Source: a virus (Duplodnaviria; Heunggongvirae; Uroviricota; Caudoviricetes). Taken from it: a DNA stretch of 18,835 nucleotides. The stretch lies in the IMG/VR virus record IMGVR_UViG_2695420456_000002, positions 1 to 18,835 of that record; one strand, written 5' to 3'. The notes beneath the pieces are model-generated. The model had not been told where the DNA came from and made no database searches. It saw only the letters and a program-made list of their open reading frames with translations. This document shows, in pieces, positions 1-18,835 of this stretch. The position numbers and the translations under genes were made by a program. Numbering within the stretch: the stretch's first letter is position 1; each line of letters begins with the position of its first letter.

Positions 1-1
1 G

Positions 2-910
2 GACTTCAGGGGAAAAACGAGTATTTTTAGTCATCCTGTTTACCTCTTTCTCAGGAAGTTTAGTCTCCAGGATTCCCGGGGCGGTTCAATTGGTGTTAGA
101 GCATGTAACTATGGAGACAAAGAAGAAGCTAAACCGATCCCCCTGCTTAGTGGTGTTAATCTGCTGAAATGTGAACATTGCGGTTCCGCTATGGTTAAGG
201 TGAAAGGAACTAACAAACGGCCTAACCAATATCGTTATTCATGCGATGCAATGCGCTCTAGTCGTATTGCATGTGTGCATACAAACTGGAGTTTTCGAGG
301 TGATCAATTAGAGAAAGCTGTATTGCAATTGCTGGCTGATAAAATCTGGGTTGCTGAGGACAAGGCTAATCCGGTTCCGGCGTTGAAAGTACAGGTTGAT
401 GAAATATCACGCAAGATTGATAACCTGATTGCCCTTTCTGCTATGACAGGAGCAACGAAGGAGCTAGCCGATCAGATTACTACCCTCAATAGCGAGCGTG
501 AAACACTCTACAATCAGATTAAGATGGCAGAAGAGGAAATGTATTCTGTGGACTCTCAAGGCTGGGAGAAGCTCGCAGAATTTGATTTAGAAGATGTTTA
601 TAACGAGGATCGCATTAAGGTCCGGTTTAAGATTAAGCAAGCTCTAAAACGGATCGGGTGTAGCAGGATTGACAAATACAAAAACTTGTTTGTATTGGAA
701 TACATTGATGGCAAGACCCAGAGAGTTGTAATAGAAAATTCAAGAGGACCGAGGAAAGGACAAATCTTTGTCGATTTGAAAACTATCAATGATAGGCAGA
801 TTCTGGAGAGTAACGGGCTTGTTCTGCATCCATGTTTAGACATGCTGACAGATAAAGACTGGAAGCCAGAAGAGGAAATACCAGGTCCATTACAGGAATT
901 TGGAATTTAA
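2..910 (+). CDS. large serine recombinase (integrase/invertase family), C-terminal portion; 5' end lies outside the window
   Basis: Frame 2 is open from position 2 to the TAA at 908-910 (the track ORF 191..910 is only its first-ATG subset). Translation contains ...PLLSGVNLLKCEHCGSAMVKVKG...YRYSC...IACVH, a four-Cys zinc-ribbon recombinase motif typical of large serine recombinases, followed by a long charged coiled-coil-like region. Strong terminator immediately downstream. Confidence 0.55.
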   Translation, partial: DFRGKTSIFSHPVYLFLRKFSLQDSRGGSIGVRACNYGDKEEAKPIPLLSGVNLLKCEHCGSAMVKVKGTNKRPNQYRYSCDAMRSSRIACVHTNWSFRGDQLEKAVLQLLADKIWVAEDKANPVPALKVQVDEISRKIDNLIALSAMTGATKELADQITTLNSERETLYNQIKMAEEEMYSVDSQGWEKLAEFDLEDVYNEDRIKVRFKIKQALKRIGCSRIDKYKNLFVLEYIDGKTQRVVIENSRGPRKGQIFVDLKTINDRQILESNGLVLHPCLDMLTDKDWKPEEEIPGPLQEFGI

Positions 911-946
911 GCGGCCTAAATCGACGTATAACGAGCTAAAACAGTT

Positions 947-972
947 AAGGGGTACATTCGTACCCCTTTTTA
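947..972. terminator. bidirectional rho-independent terminator between convergent genes
   Basis: AAGGGGTAC-ATTC-GTACCCCTT hairpin (9-bp stem) followed by TTTTTAATTT on the plus strand; lies between the recombinase stop (910) and the minus-strand nuclease stop (984). Confidence 0.55.
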
Positions 973-983
973 ATTTAATTGCG

Positions 984-1982
984 TTAGAGTGTCTCTAATG
1001 GGCTTAAATCGAGTTCTAAGTCTTCCGGTATTAAATCAGCTAACGGTGCATTCATCCACTGCGATAAATCTCGTTCTATGTCTTCATCACTAATGTAGTT
1101 GTTCAGATTGATTGCGTTGGTATCATCAAAATACATTGGCTTAGATGGGTTGGTGTGGATGTATTCATTGATGAATGATTTAACATCTTTCAGCTTGCTA
1201 ATCGGTAGCGTTTCTGTGAATCCGCTATTCATTACCTTACGTGGGATTTTCTTGCCCTGAATATTCTTTTTAATCCCCATTTCTAAATCACCAGCTTTCC
1301 ATCCAATGTTAAACAAATGTGAGCATTCAAAGGTGATTTTCTCGCTGGTGTGCTTCTGGTGTTCTCTTACCCGTTGCATCGGATCTTTGCGAGTGGTAAT
1401 TCCATATTTGAAAAACTTCTCGCCAACACGAATTAGATAAAAGTGCATAGGGCGCTGTGCAAACTTGTTTCTGATAACCTGTTTTCTACCATTCTGAATT
1501 GATTTAAGTACCCCCCTAACCAAAGGGCATGTTAACCCGCCTTGTCTGCGGTTATTGTGTAAATCACCTTTCTTGTGAATCTTTCCGTGGCACTTACAAC
1601 GAAGAATTAGTTTAGTGTCAACACCCTGATAAGGTTCAGCCAGACCTAACACATCCCACCCTATCGGCTTGTAGAACTTGCGAGCGTTTTCTAAGTGTTC
1701 TTCTTCGGTAAATCTAAACTTCTTCTTAGGCGGTGATACTCTATCTTTGCCAGTAAACTGACCAGTTAGAACATGACTAATACATGGCGTTTTAACCTTT
1801 CCGTTAACTTCTATGCAAACTTTGGTGTTCTGGAATGGTTTCTTTACAGGAAGCACAAAACCACTGTATAACCATCCATGCGCTTGACAAACTTTAATGA
1901 TTCTGGTTTCATATTCGACCGGAGGGGTCGCACGTTTGCTTTTTGCGGTAAATTCGATATCCTTTGCTAAAGTATTATTCAT
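984..1982 (-). CDS. free-standing GIY-YIG-like (T5orf172/MUG113-type) nuclease domain protein, putative homing endonuclease, with Cys/His-rich N-terminal region
   Basis: 332-aa ORF; the central segment FYLIRVGEKFFKYGITTRKDPMQRVREHQ...GFTETL resembles the T5orf172 (GIY-YIG-like) domain signature; N-terminal region carries Cys/His clusters (RCKCHGKIHKKGDLHNN) suggestive of a zinc-binding DNA-recognition module. GAGGA Shine-Dalgarno sequence 8 nt upstream of the ATG. Confidence 0.5.
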   Translation of the reverse strand: MNNTLAKDIEFTAKSKRATPPVEYETRIIKVCQAHGWLYSGFVLPVKKPFQNTKVCIEVNGKVKTPCISHVLTGQFTGKDRVSPPKKKFRFTEEEHLENARKFYKPIGWDVLGLAEPYQGVDTKLILRCKCHGKIHKKGDLHNNRRQGGLTCPLVRGVLKSIQNGRKQVIRNKFAQRPMHFYLIRVGEKFFKYGITTRKDPMQRVREHQKHTSEKITFECSHLFNIGWKAGDLEMGIKKNIQGKKIPRKVMNSGFTETLPISKLKDVKSFINEYIHTNPSKPMYFDDTNAINLNNYISDEDIERDLSQWMNAPLADLIPEDLELDLSPLETL

Positions 1983-4385: not shown

Positions 4386-7300
4386 TTAAGAAACAGTAAT
4401 ACCCGTAGTGGCTTTTTTAGTTACCATTACAGTTAAATCACTGATCCATGTGCTAGGCGTCCAGTTGTTGATTGCGCTTGATTGCACTTCAAAGGTCAAG
4501 GTCACAGCACCTTTACCCGCTGGCATATCAATAACACCTGAGTAAAGACCAGTATTACCGCCATACGCCCTATTATACAACTCTGACCCATTCTTACGAA
4601 CAATCAGGCGACATGTGTCGTAATAGGTATTATTGTTCGACCCTTCACGCGCTCGCAATCCACCAAAACTAATTGCCGGAATAACGATTTGACGATCGAA
4701 CTTGTGATCATCTTCAACGCGAACAGTGACCGTACCCTGTGGATAGCCAGCATAACCATTATCAACGTTAACATCACGGTGCGGGAACTTACGACCAATC
4801 ACCTTAACGAAATCACCCTTAACCTGAGTAGCTTCAAGCATACCCTTAATAACACAGCTAGAGTTAATCGTGACGTTGTTCAGAGTACCAGAATCAGCCG
4901 TGATATTACCTTTAACGGTAGCGTTCATGAACGTAGCGGACCCGCTCTTGTTGATATGCCATCCGGTAGATCCGTTCCAGTTGGAAGACTGGATATAGTT
5001 ACCAATTTTGGCATTATCAATAGCACCGTTTACGATCTTGGCGTTAGTGATTGCCCCGTCCTGAATCTTCGCGCTGTTAATTGCAGCATTGCCGATCTTA
5101 GCGGTAGTAATTGCCGCATCATTAATCTGGGCTGTACCAATTGCAGCATTACGAATCATCGCATTATCGAGATAAACCTTGTTACCTTCGATACCAAACG
5201 GGCAAACATCGGTCCCATTCTGCGGAGCTACAGCAATTTTATCAGCCGTAAAGATGATTTTAGTCGGTTGTGCCGGATCATTGCTTGCGCTCATGTGAAT
5301 ACCAGCCACGCGACCATCTGCATTAACTGCCAGGTTATATTTGCTGTTAATGGTTCCCTTCAAAGCATCGATTTTTACATCTGCTTCCTGATTCACACCA
5401 GCAATCTTGCCATCCATTTCTACCCGAACTTGATCAATCTTAGTTGCGCTTGCTGCCTCACTGGTAGCAATAGCTTGTTTCAGGGTAGTAGCAGATGCAC
5501 TAACTTCTTTGGTGATATCGCCTTTCAGTTCAGCTTTAACCTGATCAATCTTAGTTGAACTTGCCTTATCACCAGAAGCAATCAGACTCTTGAGAGTATC
5601 GGCTGAGGCTTGAACTGTTTTACCCGTTTCAGTAGTGATTTGCTTATGCATTGCATCAATTTTAGCATCGGCATTAGCGCCAGCTTGCTTAATAGCATCC
5701 GCGATAGTTTCATCTAATCGATCTTGTAAACCGATCAGGTCTTCCAGTGCTTCTTTGTCCTGATCGTCCCAGCTAATGGTAGATTTCATTTGCATGAAAT
5801 ACGGTTCAGACCAAACAGCATCATCCATACCGAAAATATCGTAATGTGCCGCGCGAAGATAATAATCCCCGTCCGTCAAGTCGAAAGATGTATGGCTAAC
5901 ACTATTCGTGCTTACCGCCCTTGCATCGGAGAAAGTGCTATCGGTTGCAAATTGTACAATCGTCCCAGCATAGTCCTGTTCCAGAACATCACCGTTCCAG
6001 CTAACGAAAGCAGCATTAAAACCACCACGCGCACTAAAACCTTTAATACCTTTATGCTGTGGGTTAATAGCCACTAAACGCGCTGGGGCGCTCTCTGAGT
6101 TGTTATAGCCCTTAGCCGATACTTCTACCGTAAGTTGTCGCGAAAGGCCGTTAAACTGGTTCATATCAAGTGTATAAGTCCATGATTCAGGATCGCGGGT
6201 ACGGTACTGAATAGACTTACCAGCCTTGTTAGTCACCTTGATAATGTATGCTTCAAACAGGTCACTAAACTTGTTAGTTTCACCGTTGATCATCACATCT
6301 AATTGTTGCTGATTTTCCCATTCGATAATCAGATCATTACCTTCGAAAGTTCCTGGCGTGCTACCCTGATTTTTGATTCGAATAACCGGAGTCGGTAATT
6401 CATAGGTAACAGTAGGATTCTGGTTAATCAGTTCTACCCAATCAGATCTCGCGATGATACCGAAAGCACAAACTCGGTAATCATAAGAACGATCTTTTGC
6501 CAGTGCACTGACACTGAAAATTTGCTGTGAAGTCTGTCCCAGCTTAATCCAGTTAGGCGATCCACTAACACGGTAATCAATCTGGAAGCCGTAGCGGTTA
6601 AAATCTTCCGGCGCATCCCATGTTAAAGTAACGTTCTTACCATAGATTGTTTCACCAGTTGCCTTAATTCTGAAATTAGTAGGCTTCTGTACTGTCATTG
6701 AATCCGGTAAACCACTTGGTCGGTTATCTGGGTTAGCCGCATAGTTCAGGTCAGTATAAACCTGAGAATTATATTCTGTGGCGGTGATCGTCATCATCCC
6801 AGCAATACCAGAATCAATCGAGCGGTCAATTGCAGTAATACGCCAAAGTGAATTATTCAGTTTTAATTCATCATAGGTTACGCTGATAACATCCCACACC
6901 TCGGCAGTGAATGCGTCAGTAGTCATAAAGCTGATAACCTGAGTGATACGAGATTTATTTCGTTCAATGCTCGCAAGTTTATCAATCTGGGCTTTAGACT
7001 TAACAAAACGATATTCGATATCCTTAGCGATAATTCGACCATCTTGACGAATAGTAGCATCGTTTTCAGCATCAGCCGGATAACGTAGCATTTGCTCTGA
7101 ATAGTCAATTGATGGTTCTTGATACATCGCGTTAATGGTATTGAAATAACCGTTAGTGCCACCTGTTTTCAGTGATACCTTACCCATCATGATATTGTCT
7201 TCATTGAATGTATGCTTAACAATATCAGGAGCATCCAGTTTCAGGGTAATTCTTCCGAAGGATTCGAACATCACCCCGCCGAAAGTCTGCATAAGGCTAG

Positions 7301-13619: not shown

Positions 13620-13745
13620 TTAATTCTTAGCCTTGCGGCCTCGTTTTGCTGTGGCTTTCGCCGTAACTTCTTCTACTTCTGGAATCACCACCGCTTCATG
13701 TTCCGGCAGTGGTTCCGGTTCTGGTAAAGGAAGTTCTTCGTTAGT
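13620..13745 (-). other. in-frame 41-codon open extension downstream of the TGA stop of the putative tail tube gene (candidate readthrough region)
   Basis: After TGA (13746-13748) the same frame reads TNEELPLPEPEPLPEHEAVVIPEVEEVTAKATAKRGRKAKN then TAA; no start codon with an SD within it. Confidence 0.3.
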
Positions 13746-14219
13746 TCATCCGGCAGTGAAGATTTGCTGTTTCAGCGGAGCACCATCAACAGCAAAGGTA
13801 AACTCTTTCGTTACCACTTCTTCATCGCCACCGTTCATAGCAACTTTAGAGATGAAGCCGTTGAAAGCGGTGCGAATACCAGTCTGTTTTGCTGCATCTA
13901 CATAGTATTCAATCTTAATCTGAATTCGAGTACCGTCTTCGGCAGCTTTAATGAGCTTCTCGTGTACCGCATCACCAGGAATGTAGTTAACGGTCAGAGT
14001 CAGATCAGGAACGTTCAGTTTACCTACCAGCTTACGGTTATACTGAGAAGAGAAGGATTTAACTTCTACAGTGCCGCGCTCGATACCAGTTTCAGGAAAA
14101 CCAGCACACTCTTTAATTTCTTCATAGCTTTCATGTGCAAGATCGGTGTTAGTGGTATCGGCGTGATAGAACATACTTACCAGACCACCAGTAAAAATAT
14201 CTTTAAATTGCTGAGACAT
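13746..14219 (-). CDS. putative major tail (tube) protein, 157 aa; alternative: fibre-associated or assembly protein
   Basis: ORF immediately downstream of the tail fibre gene with RBS TAAGGGGTAATTCT-ATG; size and composition compatible with a siphovirus tail tube protein. Assignment uncertain without a search. Confidence 0.4.
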   Translation of the reverse strand: MSQQFKDIFTGGLVSMFYHADTTNTDLAHESYEEIKECAGFPETGIERGTVEVKSFSSQYNRKLVGKLNVPDLTLTVNYIPGDAVHEKLIKAAEDGTRIQIKIEYYVDAAKQTGIRTAFNGFISKVAMNGGDEEVVTKEFTFAVDGAPLKQQIFTAG

Positions 14220-17891: not shown

Positions 17892-17922
17892 CTAGAATCA
17901 CCTCACTATAAAACAGGAATAA

Positions 17923-17940
17923 GGGAGGCGTTAACCTCCC
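17923..17940 (-). terminator. hairpin (GGGAGG-CGTTAA-CCTCCC) between the 240-aa gene and the fibre gene; weak terminator/attenuator candidate
   Basis: 6-bp GC-rich stem; on the minus strand it is followed by UUAUUCCUGUUUUAU and then the fibre RBS AGTGAGGTGAT. Confidence 0.3.
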
Positions 17941-17973
17941 AACGTTCATGTTTTATTTAGGTAGGAGAATCCT

Positions 17974-18696
17974 TTAGTATTCGCCGAAATCGATCCGGTC
18001 AGTCTTAGCCACTGCGCCAATTTCGGCTGGCGTTGGTTTCTCATTGGTGGAATATACCTTGATCCATTCCGACTTCCCATTTTCCTGGATATTTCGTACC
18101 CGCAAACGTGGAGCACCGGAAGTATTACACGTTAATTGCCATGCGCCATGCTCATTAGCTTGAAGATGAATTAACGATGTATCAGCACCATAAGGGTTAG
18201 TGCTAGCCGTTCCTTTGTAGGTTACGAAGCGGTTTCCTGTCAGAGATTCACTATCAATAGGTCCGGTGAATGGGCTAACGCCTGAGCCTACGCCATAATC
18301 CCCTTGTCGCAGAATTTTTCCCTCGGTCGCTATACCCCTTGCTAGAATCCCGCCATCTGGTTCAAGTTTAAATTCCAGTGTTACAGCTTTGTTATCTGCG
18401 CCACGGGTTTTGTGACTAGTGACATAAGCGTCATAGATGACATAGTAACCAGTGTTAGCAGCACTATAGCCAGAGTTCACAACATAGAACATACGGAAGC
18501 GTAAAGGTGTTTTATCCTCTACCGCTTTCATCAACATTGCTTGATGTTCATCGTCAAGAACACGGTTTAATGTGAGTGTTGTCGGTTCCAGTCTACGATA
18601 ACCAGCAAGTTTCCCCGTAGCGTCCTGATCGTACTCTTCCAGAGTTTCTATCTCTGTGGATTCGGTTAGAGTAGGGAATGCTGCGATGTTCTCCAT
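17974..18696 (-). CDS. tail fibre-associated protein, 240 aa, with C-terminal phage-fibre-type repeat
   Basis: ATG at 18694-18696 with an in-frame TAG 11 codons upstream; weak SD. C-terminus [24 protein letters not shown] matches the KPTPxEIGA repeat also present twice in the adjacent fibre. Confidence 0.5.
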
Positions 18697-18759
18697 AGAA
18701 CTAAAGCTAGGATCGAAAAAGTCGACCTAGACTGGCCCCCTGAATCTCCAGACAACCAG

Positions 18760-18779
18760 TATCACTTAAATAAGTGATA
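18760..18779. promoter_or_regulatory. 20-bp palindrome TATCACTTA-AA-TAAGTGATA in a divergent intergenic region (candidate operator)
   Basis: Perfect 9-bp arms; the outer hexamers TATCAC/GTGATA equal the lambda-type operator half-site but with different spacing. Lies between the minus-strand gene starting at 18696 and a possible plus-strand start (GGAG at 18810-18813, ATG at 18819). Confidence 0.35.
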
Positions 18780-18835
18780 GTCTTAATACTAGTTTTTAGA
18801 CTAGTCATTGGAGAACAGATGATTGATGTCTTAGG

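Follow-up and report, generated by a model that had tools for sequence, protein, structure and literature searches.

The question raised by this locus is whether the palindrome at its right-hand edge belongs to the control circuitry of a phage or to a different kind of element altogether. The window (the whole stretch of DNA analyzed, 18,835 nt) is the entire contig CYDC01000070.1 of GCA_001285425.1, and it ends 108 nt into a multicopy repeat. Inspection of the sequence places a 20-bp dyad, TATCACTTA-AA-TAAGTGATA, with 9-bp arms and a 2-bp center, at positions 18760 to 18779; to its right lie two copies of ACTAGT (18788 to 18793 and 18800 to 18805), a GGAG (18810 to 18813), and an ATG (18819 to 18821). 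An earlier note on this DNA had described the dyad, both ACTAGT copies, the GGAG, and the ATG, and every one of these motifs was found to lie where it had been placed. The same note read the region from 18697 to 18835 as a divergent intergenic region of the phage, and the palindrome as kin to the operators bound by lambda CI and Cro. Our analysis leads to a different conclusion.

We consider it about 95% probable that positions 18728 to 18835 are the left end of IS2, a member of the IS3 family, inserted in a tail-region gene of an E. coli prophage. Aligned with IS2A as annotated in E. coli K-12, this stretch corresponds (plus strand) to IS2 nt 1 to 108, at which point the contig stops inside the repeat, and 107 of the 108 positions are identical. 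The sole change, A to G at IS2 nt 31 (window position 18758), is common to many natural IS2 copies, and Stx phages, as well as other genomes of E. coli and Shigella, contain IS2 copies that match the segment from 18728 to 18835 with 100% identity. From 18728 onward the sequence agrees, nt 31 excepted, with that printed by Lewis et al. (2012, PMC3299598) as [TAGACTGG...TATCACTTAA]ATAAGTGATAGTCTTA. Its first 42 bp (18728 to 18769, plus strand; IS2 nt 1 to 42) match the left terminal inverted repeat (IRL) printed in PMC3299598, starting with TAGACTGG... and ending with ...TATCACTTAA, and depart from it only through A31G. When IRL is aligned with the right inverted repeat (IRR), the common blocks are CCAGAC and TATCACTTAA. 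IRL is the recipient end in figure-of-eight formation and an end to which transposase binds; at the other end IS2 carries a 41-bp IRR, the element is bordered by a 5-bp direct duplication of its target, and its orfB, which encodes the DDE catalytic domain, is joined to orfA by -1 frameshifting at A6G. The copy in the window is seen for nt 1 to 108 alone, and it may be truncated or rearranged. The feature as such is already known biology, namely, the left end of IS2.

The distribution of the sequence is of the same character. In a megablast comparison of 17900 to 18835 with phage records, only the last 108 to 109 bases were matched (at 95 to 100% identity), and the annotated phage-record matches to 18727/8 to 18835 were all labeled IS2, InsC, or IS2 OrfA. 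With the same query, matches turned up in 4706 of 5426 complete E. coli genomes (median of 3 places per matched genome, up to 41), almost always through the IS2 segment, and at least 5000 plasmid records carry orfA by tblastn. The distribution is thus multicopy and mobile, as expected of IS2, in both E. coli genomes and plasmids. The phage part (17900 to 18728) was found in a few dozen related prophages only, at 81 to 94% identity. Among the 5426 complete E. coli genomes, no record spans the phage part and the IS2 part, and none has an insertion at this site inside the gene described below.

The nature of the interrupted gene is clearest from its closest uninterrupted relative, the prophage of E. 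coli CE0007a (locus L001), which is collinear with the window up to 18727/18728 and unrelated beyond. Its homologue is a 277-aa CDS, annotated as hypothetical, and relative to such uninterrupted genes IS2 sits 27 codons inside the reading frame. What is left in the window is the 3' remnant (codons 28 to 277) at 17974 to 18726 on the minus strand, as delimited by alignment with the uninterrupted relative; the missing 5' part is absent elsewhere in the window. Given the junction at 18727/18728, positions 18697 to 18727 are coding sequence of the broken gene and not intergenic. The idea of a divergent phage intergenic region accordingly fails on both sides, in that everything from 18728 rightward is IS2 and uninterrupted relatives have a 277-aa CDS in this place. 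The junction also makes an in-frame TAG just before the point at which translation of the remnant resumes, and the ATG at 18696 that opens the listed 240-aa ORF (17974 to 18696, minus strand) is not a true gene start but codes for a Met inside the truncated gene. The interrupted gene lies just upstream of a 1204-aa long-tail-fiber gene. Among protein families it matches phrog_158, “major tail protein,” only, and that weakly (E=5.5e-8), and Pfam, NCBIfam, and PDB sequence searches returned nothing. The 157-aa ORF at 13746 to 14219 carries the tail tube annotation in RefSeq relatives and appears to be the true gene for that protein. In this genome the insertion of IS2 inactivates the phage gene, with probable polarity on the downstream tail genes.

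The empty site reads GTCGACC/TGATTG, the slash marking the point of insertion. In K-12, a duplicated 5-bp target, ATTAC, borders IS2A on either side, and by analogy we infer that CGACC (18723 to 18727) is the presumed 5-bp target site here and would be found duplicated at the right end of IS2. On this basis the right junction is predicted to consist of IS2 ...GGGGCAAATCCA, then CGACC, then TGATTGTCTATCTGG..., for an insert of 1331 + 5 bp.

The opposite end of the contig also lies in an insertion sequence. Bases 1 to approximately 88 to 90 (minus strand) are the terminus and the orfA start of IS629, again of the IS3 family. A query with window positions 1 to 1000 matched 3568 of the 5426 E. coli genomes, spread by the IS629 repeat, and the element is annotated as IS629 in a Stx2a phage record. 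IS629 interrupts the large serine recombinase (integrase) gene: its insertion point corresponds to bp 858 of a gene that in related prophages encodes a 559-aa “recombinase family protein.” As a result of this insertion, the “serine recombinase” ORF at 191 to 910 is a C-terminal remnant only, and the lysogeny or late-gene switch that had been tied to this recombinase loses its partner: the gene has been cut by IS629. The prophage fragment, with an IS at both sides, is probably defective and unable to excise. The copies of IS2 and IS629 also account for the assembly breaks at both contig ends. The locus belongs with the ends of mobile elements and not with candidate phage regulatory switches.

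Judged within the window, the palindrome at 18760 to 18779 carries weak statistical weight. Three perfect palindromes with 9-bp arms and a spacer of 0 to 10 bp occur in the window, against a mean of 1.0 in simulated sequences of the same composition. The 20-mer is single-copy in the window, even with 3 mismatches allowed; a search for further copies, one of the checks that had been proposed, was run within the window and at up to 3 mismatches returned this one copy only. With 22 occurrences of the hexamer TATCAC/GTGATA in the window, the match to the lambda half-site is uninformative. ACTAGT occurs 5 times against 4.1 expected, and the unusual feature is the close spacing of one pair only. The palindrome owes its significance to the near-identity of these 108 nt in thousands of IS2 copies, and to the experimental footprint described in PMC3299598.

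Against this background, the notion of a native phage control region, divergently transcribed, in which the palindrome is a CI/Cro-like operator for lysogeny or for the late tail genes, commands practically no credence. It would make sense of a dyad containing TATCAC/GTGATA and followed by a Shine-Dalgarno sequence (SD) and an ATG, and of the phage structural genes to the left. However, the DNA from 18728 onward is that of IS2 and not of the phage, related prophages have an unbroken coding sequence and no palindrome at the site, the hexamer is present 22 times by chance while the palindrome is present once, and the downstream gene is the orfA of IS2. The comparison with the empty site had already refuted this candidate. 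A more mundane objection is that the phage-IS2 junction might be an assembly artifact, that is, a chimeric contig end. Both contig ends do stop in multicopy IS elements, and the junction is present in 0 of the 5426 complete E. coli genomes. We nevertheless regard an artifact as highly improbable: the phage sequence gives way to IS2 precisely at nt 1 of the element, which is what a true insertion predicts, an identical contig is present in two samples, and contigs that end shortly inside repeats are normal for short-read assembly.

With the left end of IS2 as the preferred reading, the motifs fall into place. In the IS2A alignment the dyad occupies IS2 nt 33 to 52. The left arm coincides with element III, a motif at the inner end of IRL whose ten bases, TATCACTTA(A), are present in IRR as well, and the right arm is an inverted copy that is found at the IS2 left end only. 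According to PMC3299598, which cites Hu et al. (1994), bp 39 to 48 are protected and the OrfA (InsA) repressor docks at TAAATAA, just 5' of the promoter PIRL. Transferred to the window via the K-12 IS2A alignment, the footprint-protected stretch, TTAAATAAGT, lies at 18766 to 18775 (IS2 nt 39 to 48). PMC3299598 also assigns the TGAT at bp 48 to 51 to the start of the extended -10 in PIRL, a weak promoter, so that the right arm of the dyad overlaps the promoter; on the strength of this description and of conservation, the extended -10, TGaTAGTCT, is placed at 18775 to 18783 (plus strand; IS2 nt 48 to 56). Scans for consensus sigma-70 promoters and for terminators found nothing in 18600 to 18835 nor in the left end of K-12 IS2A, and the empty consensus scan fits a weak extended -10 promoter while lending it no independent support.

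The ACTAGT pair (18788 to 18805, plus strand; IS2 nt 61 to 66 and 73 to 78) is situated in the orfA leader, around the likely transcription start of PIRL, which we infer to be near IS2 nt 63. A leader-hairpin role for the pair was considered and dropped: a fold of the orfA leader including both copies was not significant (z=-1.47), and the pairing is lost in Aeromonas-type and qnrS1-linked relatives. Rfam (at gathering thresholds) and tRNA scans of the whole window returned nothing. The SD GGAG and the first 17 nt of orfA/insC (18810 to 18835, plus strand; the ATG at 18819 is IS2 nt 92) are identical to K-12 insC1. The predicted peptide begins M I D V L G..., and the start lies about 91 nt from the left tip, as IS2 requires. 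The suggestion of a plus-strand gene starting at the ATG at 18819 is thus confirmed in the form of IS2 orfA/insC, and the question of what that gene might be, a repressor or a Cro-like protein, is settled in favor of OrfA, a small helix-turn-helix (HTH) DNA-binding regulator, and against a Cro-like phage gene.

The orfA of the window copy continues past the contig end, and domain matches were made with the full K-12 OrfA protein, which matches Pfam HTH_Tnp_1 (E=1.8e-19) and NCBIfam NF006928, “IS2 repressor TnpA” (E=2.9e-83). OrfA is described as having an H+HTH binding domain and a leucine-zipper-like oligomerization motif (PMC3219604), and PMC3299598 credits it with repressor activity on the adjacent promoter. 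The prediction from the palindrome alone of a dimeric HTH regulator was therefore sound in its first half, given that the HTH regulator OrfA is encoded next door and is a reported binder of this site (PMC3299598); that it acts here as a dimer is presumptive, as is the symmetric reading of the dyad by such a dimer.

These placements fit the published account of IS2 control. IS2 transposase is kept low through transcription of orfA and orfAB from the weak PIRL, at the inner edge of IRL. The OrfAB transposase binds the left arm of the dyad (inner IRL), and the 14-kDa OrfA, with its leucine-zipper-like motif and an N-terminal HTH in common with the transposase, docks at the center and right arm. 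OrfA so bound occludes the extended -10, which switches off transcription of orfA and orfAB and, with it, the supply of transposase. OrfA binding, repression, and the status of PIRL as an extended -10 promoter are taken from the literature (by way of the secondary description in PMC3299598), and the identity of IS2, the positions of the motifs, the gene interruption, the HTH of OrfA, and the conservation and covariation of the dyad come from the present analysis. Once the figure-of-eight and the minicircle have formed, a stronger junction promoter arises, with its -35 in IRR, its -10 in the left end, and a mandatory 17-bp spacer between them (PMC3299598, PMC3219604). By its position, this -10 would be the TAGACT at the extreme tip, at window positions 18728 to 18733.

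To follow the dyad among IS2 relatives, we compared 80 OrfA-encoding loci from one-genome-per-species contigs and four plasmid relatives; the resulting table of left ends (n=84) comprises 79 of the genome-collection loci, the window, and the four plasmid relatives. Of the 84 IS2-like left ends in the table, 64 have a perfect dyad. Conservation in relatives had been put forward as a check on the palindrome, and the outcome depends on which relatives are meant: the dyad is absent at the site in uninterrupted prophages and is kept among IS2-like left ends. Among the copies from Shigella flexneri SFBU1023 and E. coli ECMA0423 (loci L007, L009, L011, and others), the commonest left-end variant, which is abundant in S. 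flexneri and some E. coli genomes, has TT for AA at the center. Read on the opposite strand, this variant gives back the original 20-mer exactly, such that the symmetry is intact and TAAATAA becomes TATTTAA. A few copies have ATT in place of the orfA ATG along with extra mutations, and these look like decaying copies. IS2 orfA, identical or 95% identical, was also observed on 0.5- to 5-kb contigs from unrelated phyla (L042, L045, L050, L068, and L071; Streptosporangium, Paenisporosarcina, Lamprocystis, Brevibacterium, and a Collinsella MAG), most simply as a result of contamination from E. coli or a cloning host.

The more diverged relatives vary in both arms and center. ISEc36-type elements have an imperfect dyad, TATCACTTA-AG-TTAGTGATA, with 8 of 9 pairs; a Rahnella relative has TCACTTA-A-TAAGTGA; an Aeromonas-type relative has a different yet symmetric CCTCTTAA-C-TTAAGAGG; a qnrS1-linked Klebsiella element has CTCTTA-AAA-TAAGAG; and in a Salmonella relative the perfect arms amount to 4 bp only. 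Half-site spacing among the relatives is 1 to 3 bp. In the Aeromonas-type and qnrS1-linked elements both arms have changed together, from CAC/GTG to CTC/GAG, with a further T/A-to-C/G change. Where right ends were recovered, in the Aeromonas element and in the Salmonella relative of the same clade, the inner motif of IRR shifts in parallel. The Aeromonas and Salmonella relatives, both of the CTCTTA clade, also differ in the recognition helix of OrfA (A42N, S44N, and L48K), at positions that fall inside the mutationally defined binding domain (PMC3219604). The -10 hexamer, TAGTCT, is kept in all relatives, save for TAATCT in Providencia. The ACTAGT pair is kept in the IS2/ISEc36 clade only: Aeromonas-type and qnrS1-linked relatives lack the first copy and have an altered form of the second.

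As far as the sequences go, this covariation supports selection for a symmetric site read by a common HTH, in a sample that is small and amounts essentially to one independent lineage split. PMC3299598 gives the docking site as TAAATAA and not as a two-fold symmetric operator, and the word palindrome is absent from it. We tentatively suggest, at somewhat less than even odds, that the OrfA site is a true two-fold symmetric operator extending beyond TAAATAA, built from an inverted element III (TATCACTTAA) set against the -10 of PIRL and coevolving with the OrfA recognition helix (CACTTA/TAAGTG to CTCTTA/TAAGAG, with A42N, S44N, and L48K). If so, the operator would tolerate a flipped center (AA to TT) and spacings of 1 to 3 bp, and the known model of IS2 would be refined, not overturned.

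Rigid dimeric operators seldom show a half-site spacing that ranges from 1 to 3 bp, and it is here that a structural role for the dyad has its appeal, either as a hairpin with an 8-bp stem in incoming or junction-promoter transcripts or as a cruciform or other DNA structure in transposition. A loop would accommodate a spacing of 1 to 3 nt with symmetry kept better than a rigid dimer would, and folding of the 20-mer does give a hairpin (-6.3 kcal/mol, z=-5.8) with 8 bp in its stem and 4 nt in its loop, which is kept within a longer transcript. But the right arm precedes the PIRL -10 and hence is missing from the normal orfA mRNA, protein protection of exactly that stretch is reported in PMC3299598, and the stem is weak, AT-rich, and far from the SD and ATG, all of which makes such a role unlikely. 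That the symmetry is incidental, with the left arm held by the inverted repeat and the right arm by the promoter, is in our view decidedly unlikely as well. Chance alone would supply about one palindrome of this kind in a window, and the 8 of 9 pairs in ISEc36-type elements and the 4-bp perfect arms of the Salmonella relative speak for it too; the compensatory two-arm changes in the Aeromonas-type and qnrS1-linked elements (CAC/GTG to CTC/GAG and T/A to C/G), however, and the perfect symmetry of the AA-to-TT center variant, argue against it.

Several other observations were made in the window. The two other perfect palindromes with 9-bp arms, at 947 to 968 (AAGGGGTAC-ATTC-GTACCCCTT), between the convergent ORFs at 191 to 910 (plus strand) and 984 to 1982 (minus strand), and at 2350 to 2374 (AAAAGCGCC-CACCAGA-GGCGCTTTT), near the overlap of the ORFs at 2029 to 2415 and 2378 to 2731, look like transcription terminators. 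The 157-aa tail tube gene (13746 to 14219, minus strand) ends in TGA, after which the frame is open for 41 more codons (TNEELPLPEPEPLPEHEAVVIPEVEEVTAKATAKRGRKAKN) and is followed by a strong intrinsic terminator (region 13620 to 13748). In five diverged relatives this extension is always in frame, at 36 to 41 codons, with in-frame indels only; stop codons crowd the other two frames, and the TGA-ACT context is constant. In the relative prophage L001, a 670-aa capsid-family gene also ends in TGA, and downstream of it, at 4681 to 4812, comes a 42-codon in-frame tail that is similar in sequence to the tube extension and is followed by the same terminator. These are candidates for programmed UGA read-through, which would yield C-terminally extended tube and capsid proteins, or the extension could instead be a duplicated 3' module; a literature search turned up no matching description in the titles and abstracts that it returned.

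With regard to the locus itself, the earlier reading is partly supported, in that a regulatory site and an adjacent HTH gene are present; its framing as a phage switch was wrong. What is added to IS2 biology is modest, namely, that a promoter-proximal dyad symmetry is kept via compensatory changes in diverged relatives. In relation to known systems, the segment shares with IS2 the same 42-bp IRL, dyad, TGaTAGTCT extended -10, SD, and orfA start (107 of 108 positions over nt 1 to 108) and differs from it in A31G, in its insertion locus within the 277-aa prophage gene, and in that the first 108 nt alone are in the window. The operators of lambda OR and OL resemble the IS2 dyad in their symmetry, in binding an HTH protein, in overlapping a promoter element, and in the hexamer TATCAC. 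However, the lambda operators are 17 bp long and are arranged in arrays of three between cI and cro, whereas the IS2 dyad is one 20-bp site with other spacing inside a transposable element; it has neither a 17-bp site with lambda half-site spacing nor several adjacent copies, and OrfA (HTH_Tnp_1) is without homology to lambda CI/Cro. The supposed kinship to the CI/Cro operator thus founders on length, spacing, and copy number, the shared hexamer being common by chance.

Closer parallels are found among the insertion sequences. InsA of IS1 is autoregulatory: it binds its own inverted repeats and represses a promoter within IRL. In IS30, an N-terminal transposase fragment overlaps its promoter (PMC3299598). 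The likeness to IS2 lies in a small HTH protein with the DNA-binding domain of the transposase, acting on the inner left repeat at a weak promoter, an arrangement by which transposase synthesis is limited (PMC3299598); the proteins and ends of IS1 and IS30 are unrelated to those of IS2. By contrast, the OrfA of IS911, a closer relative, is without this repressor function (PMC3299598).
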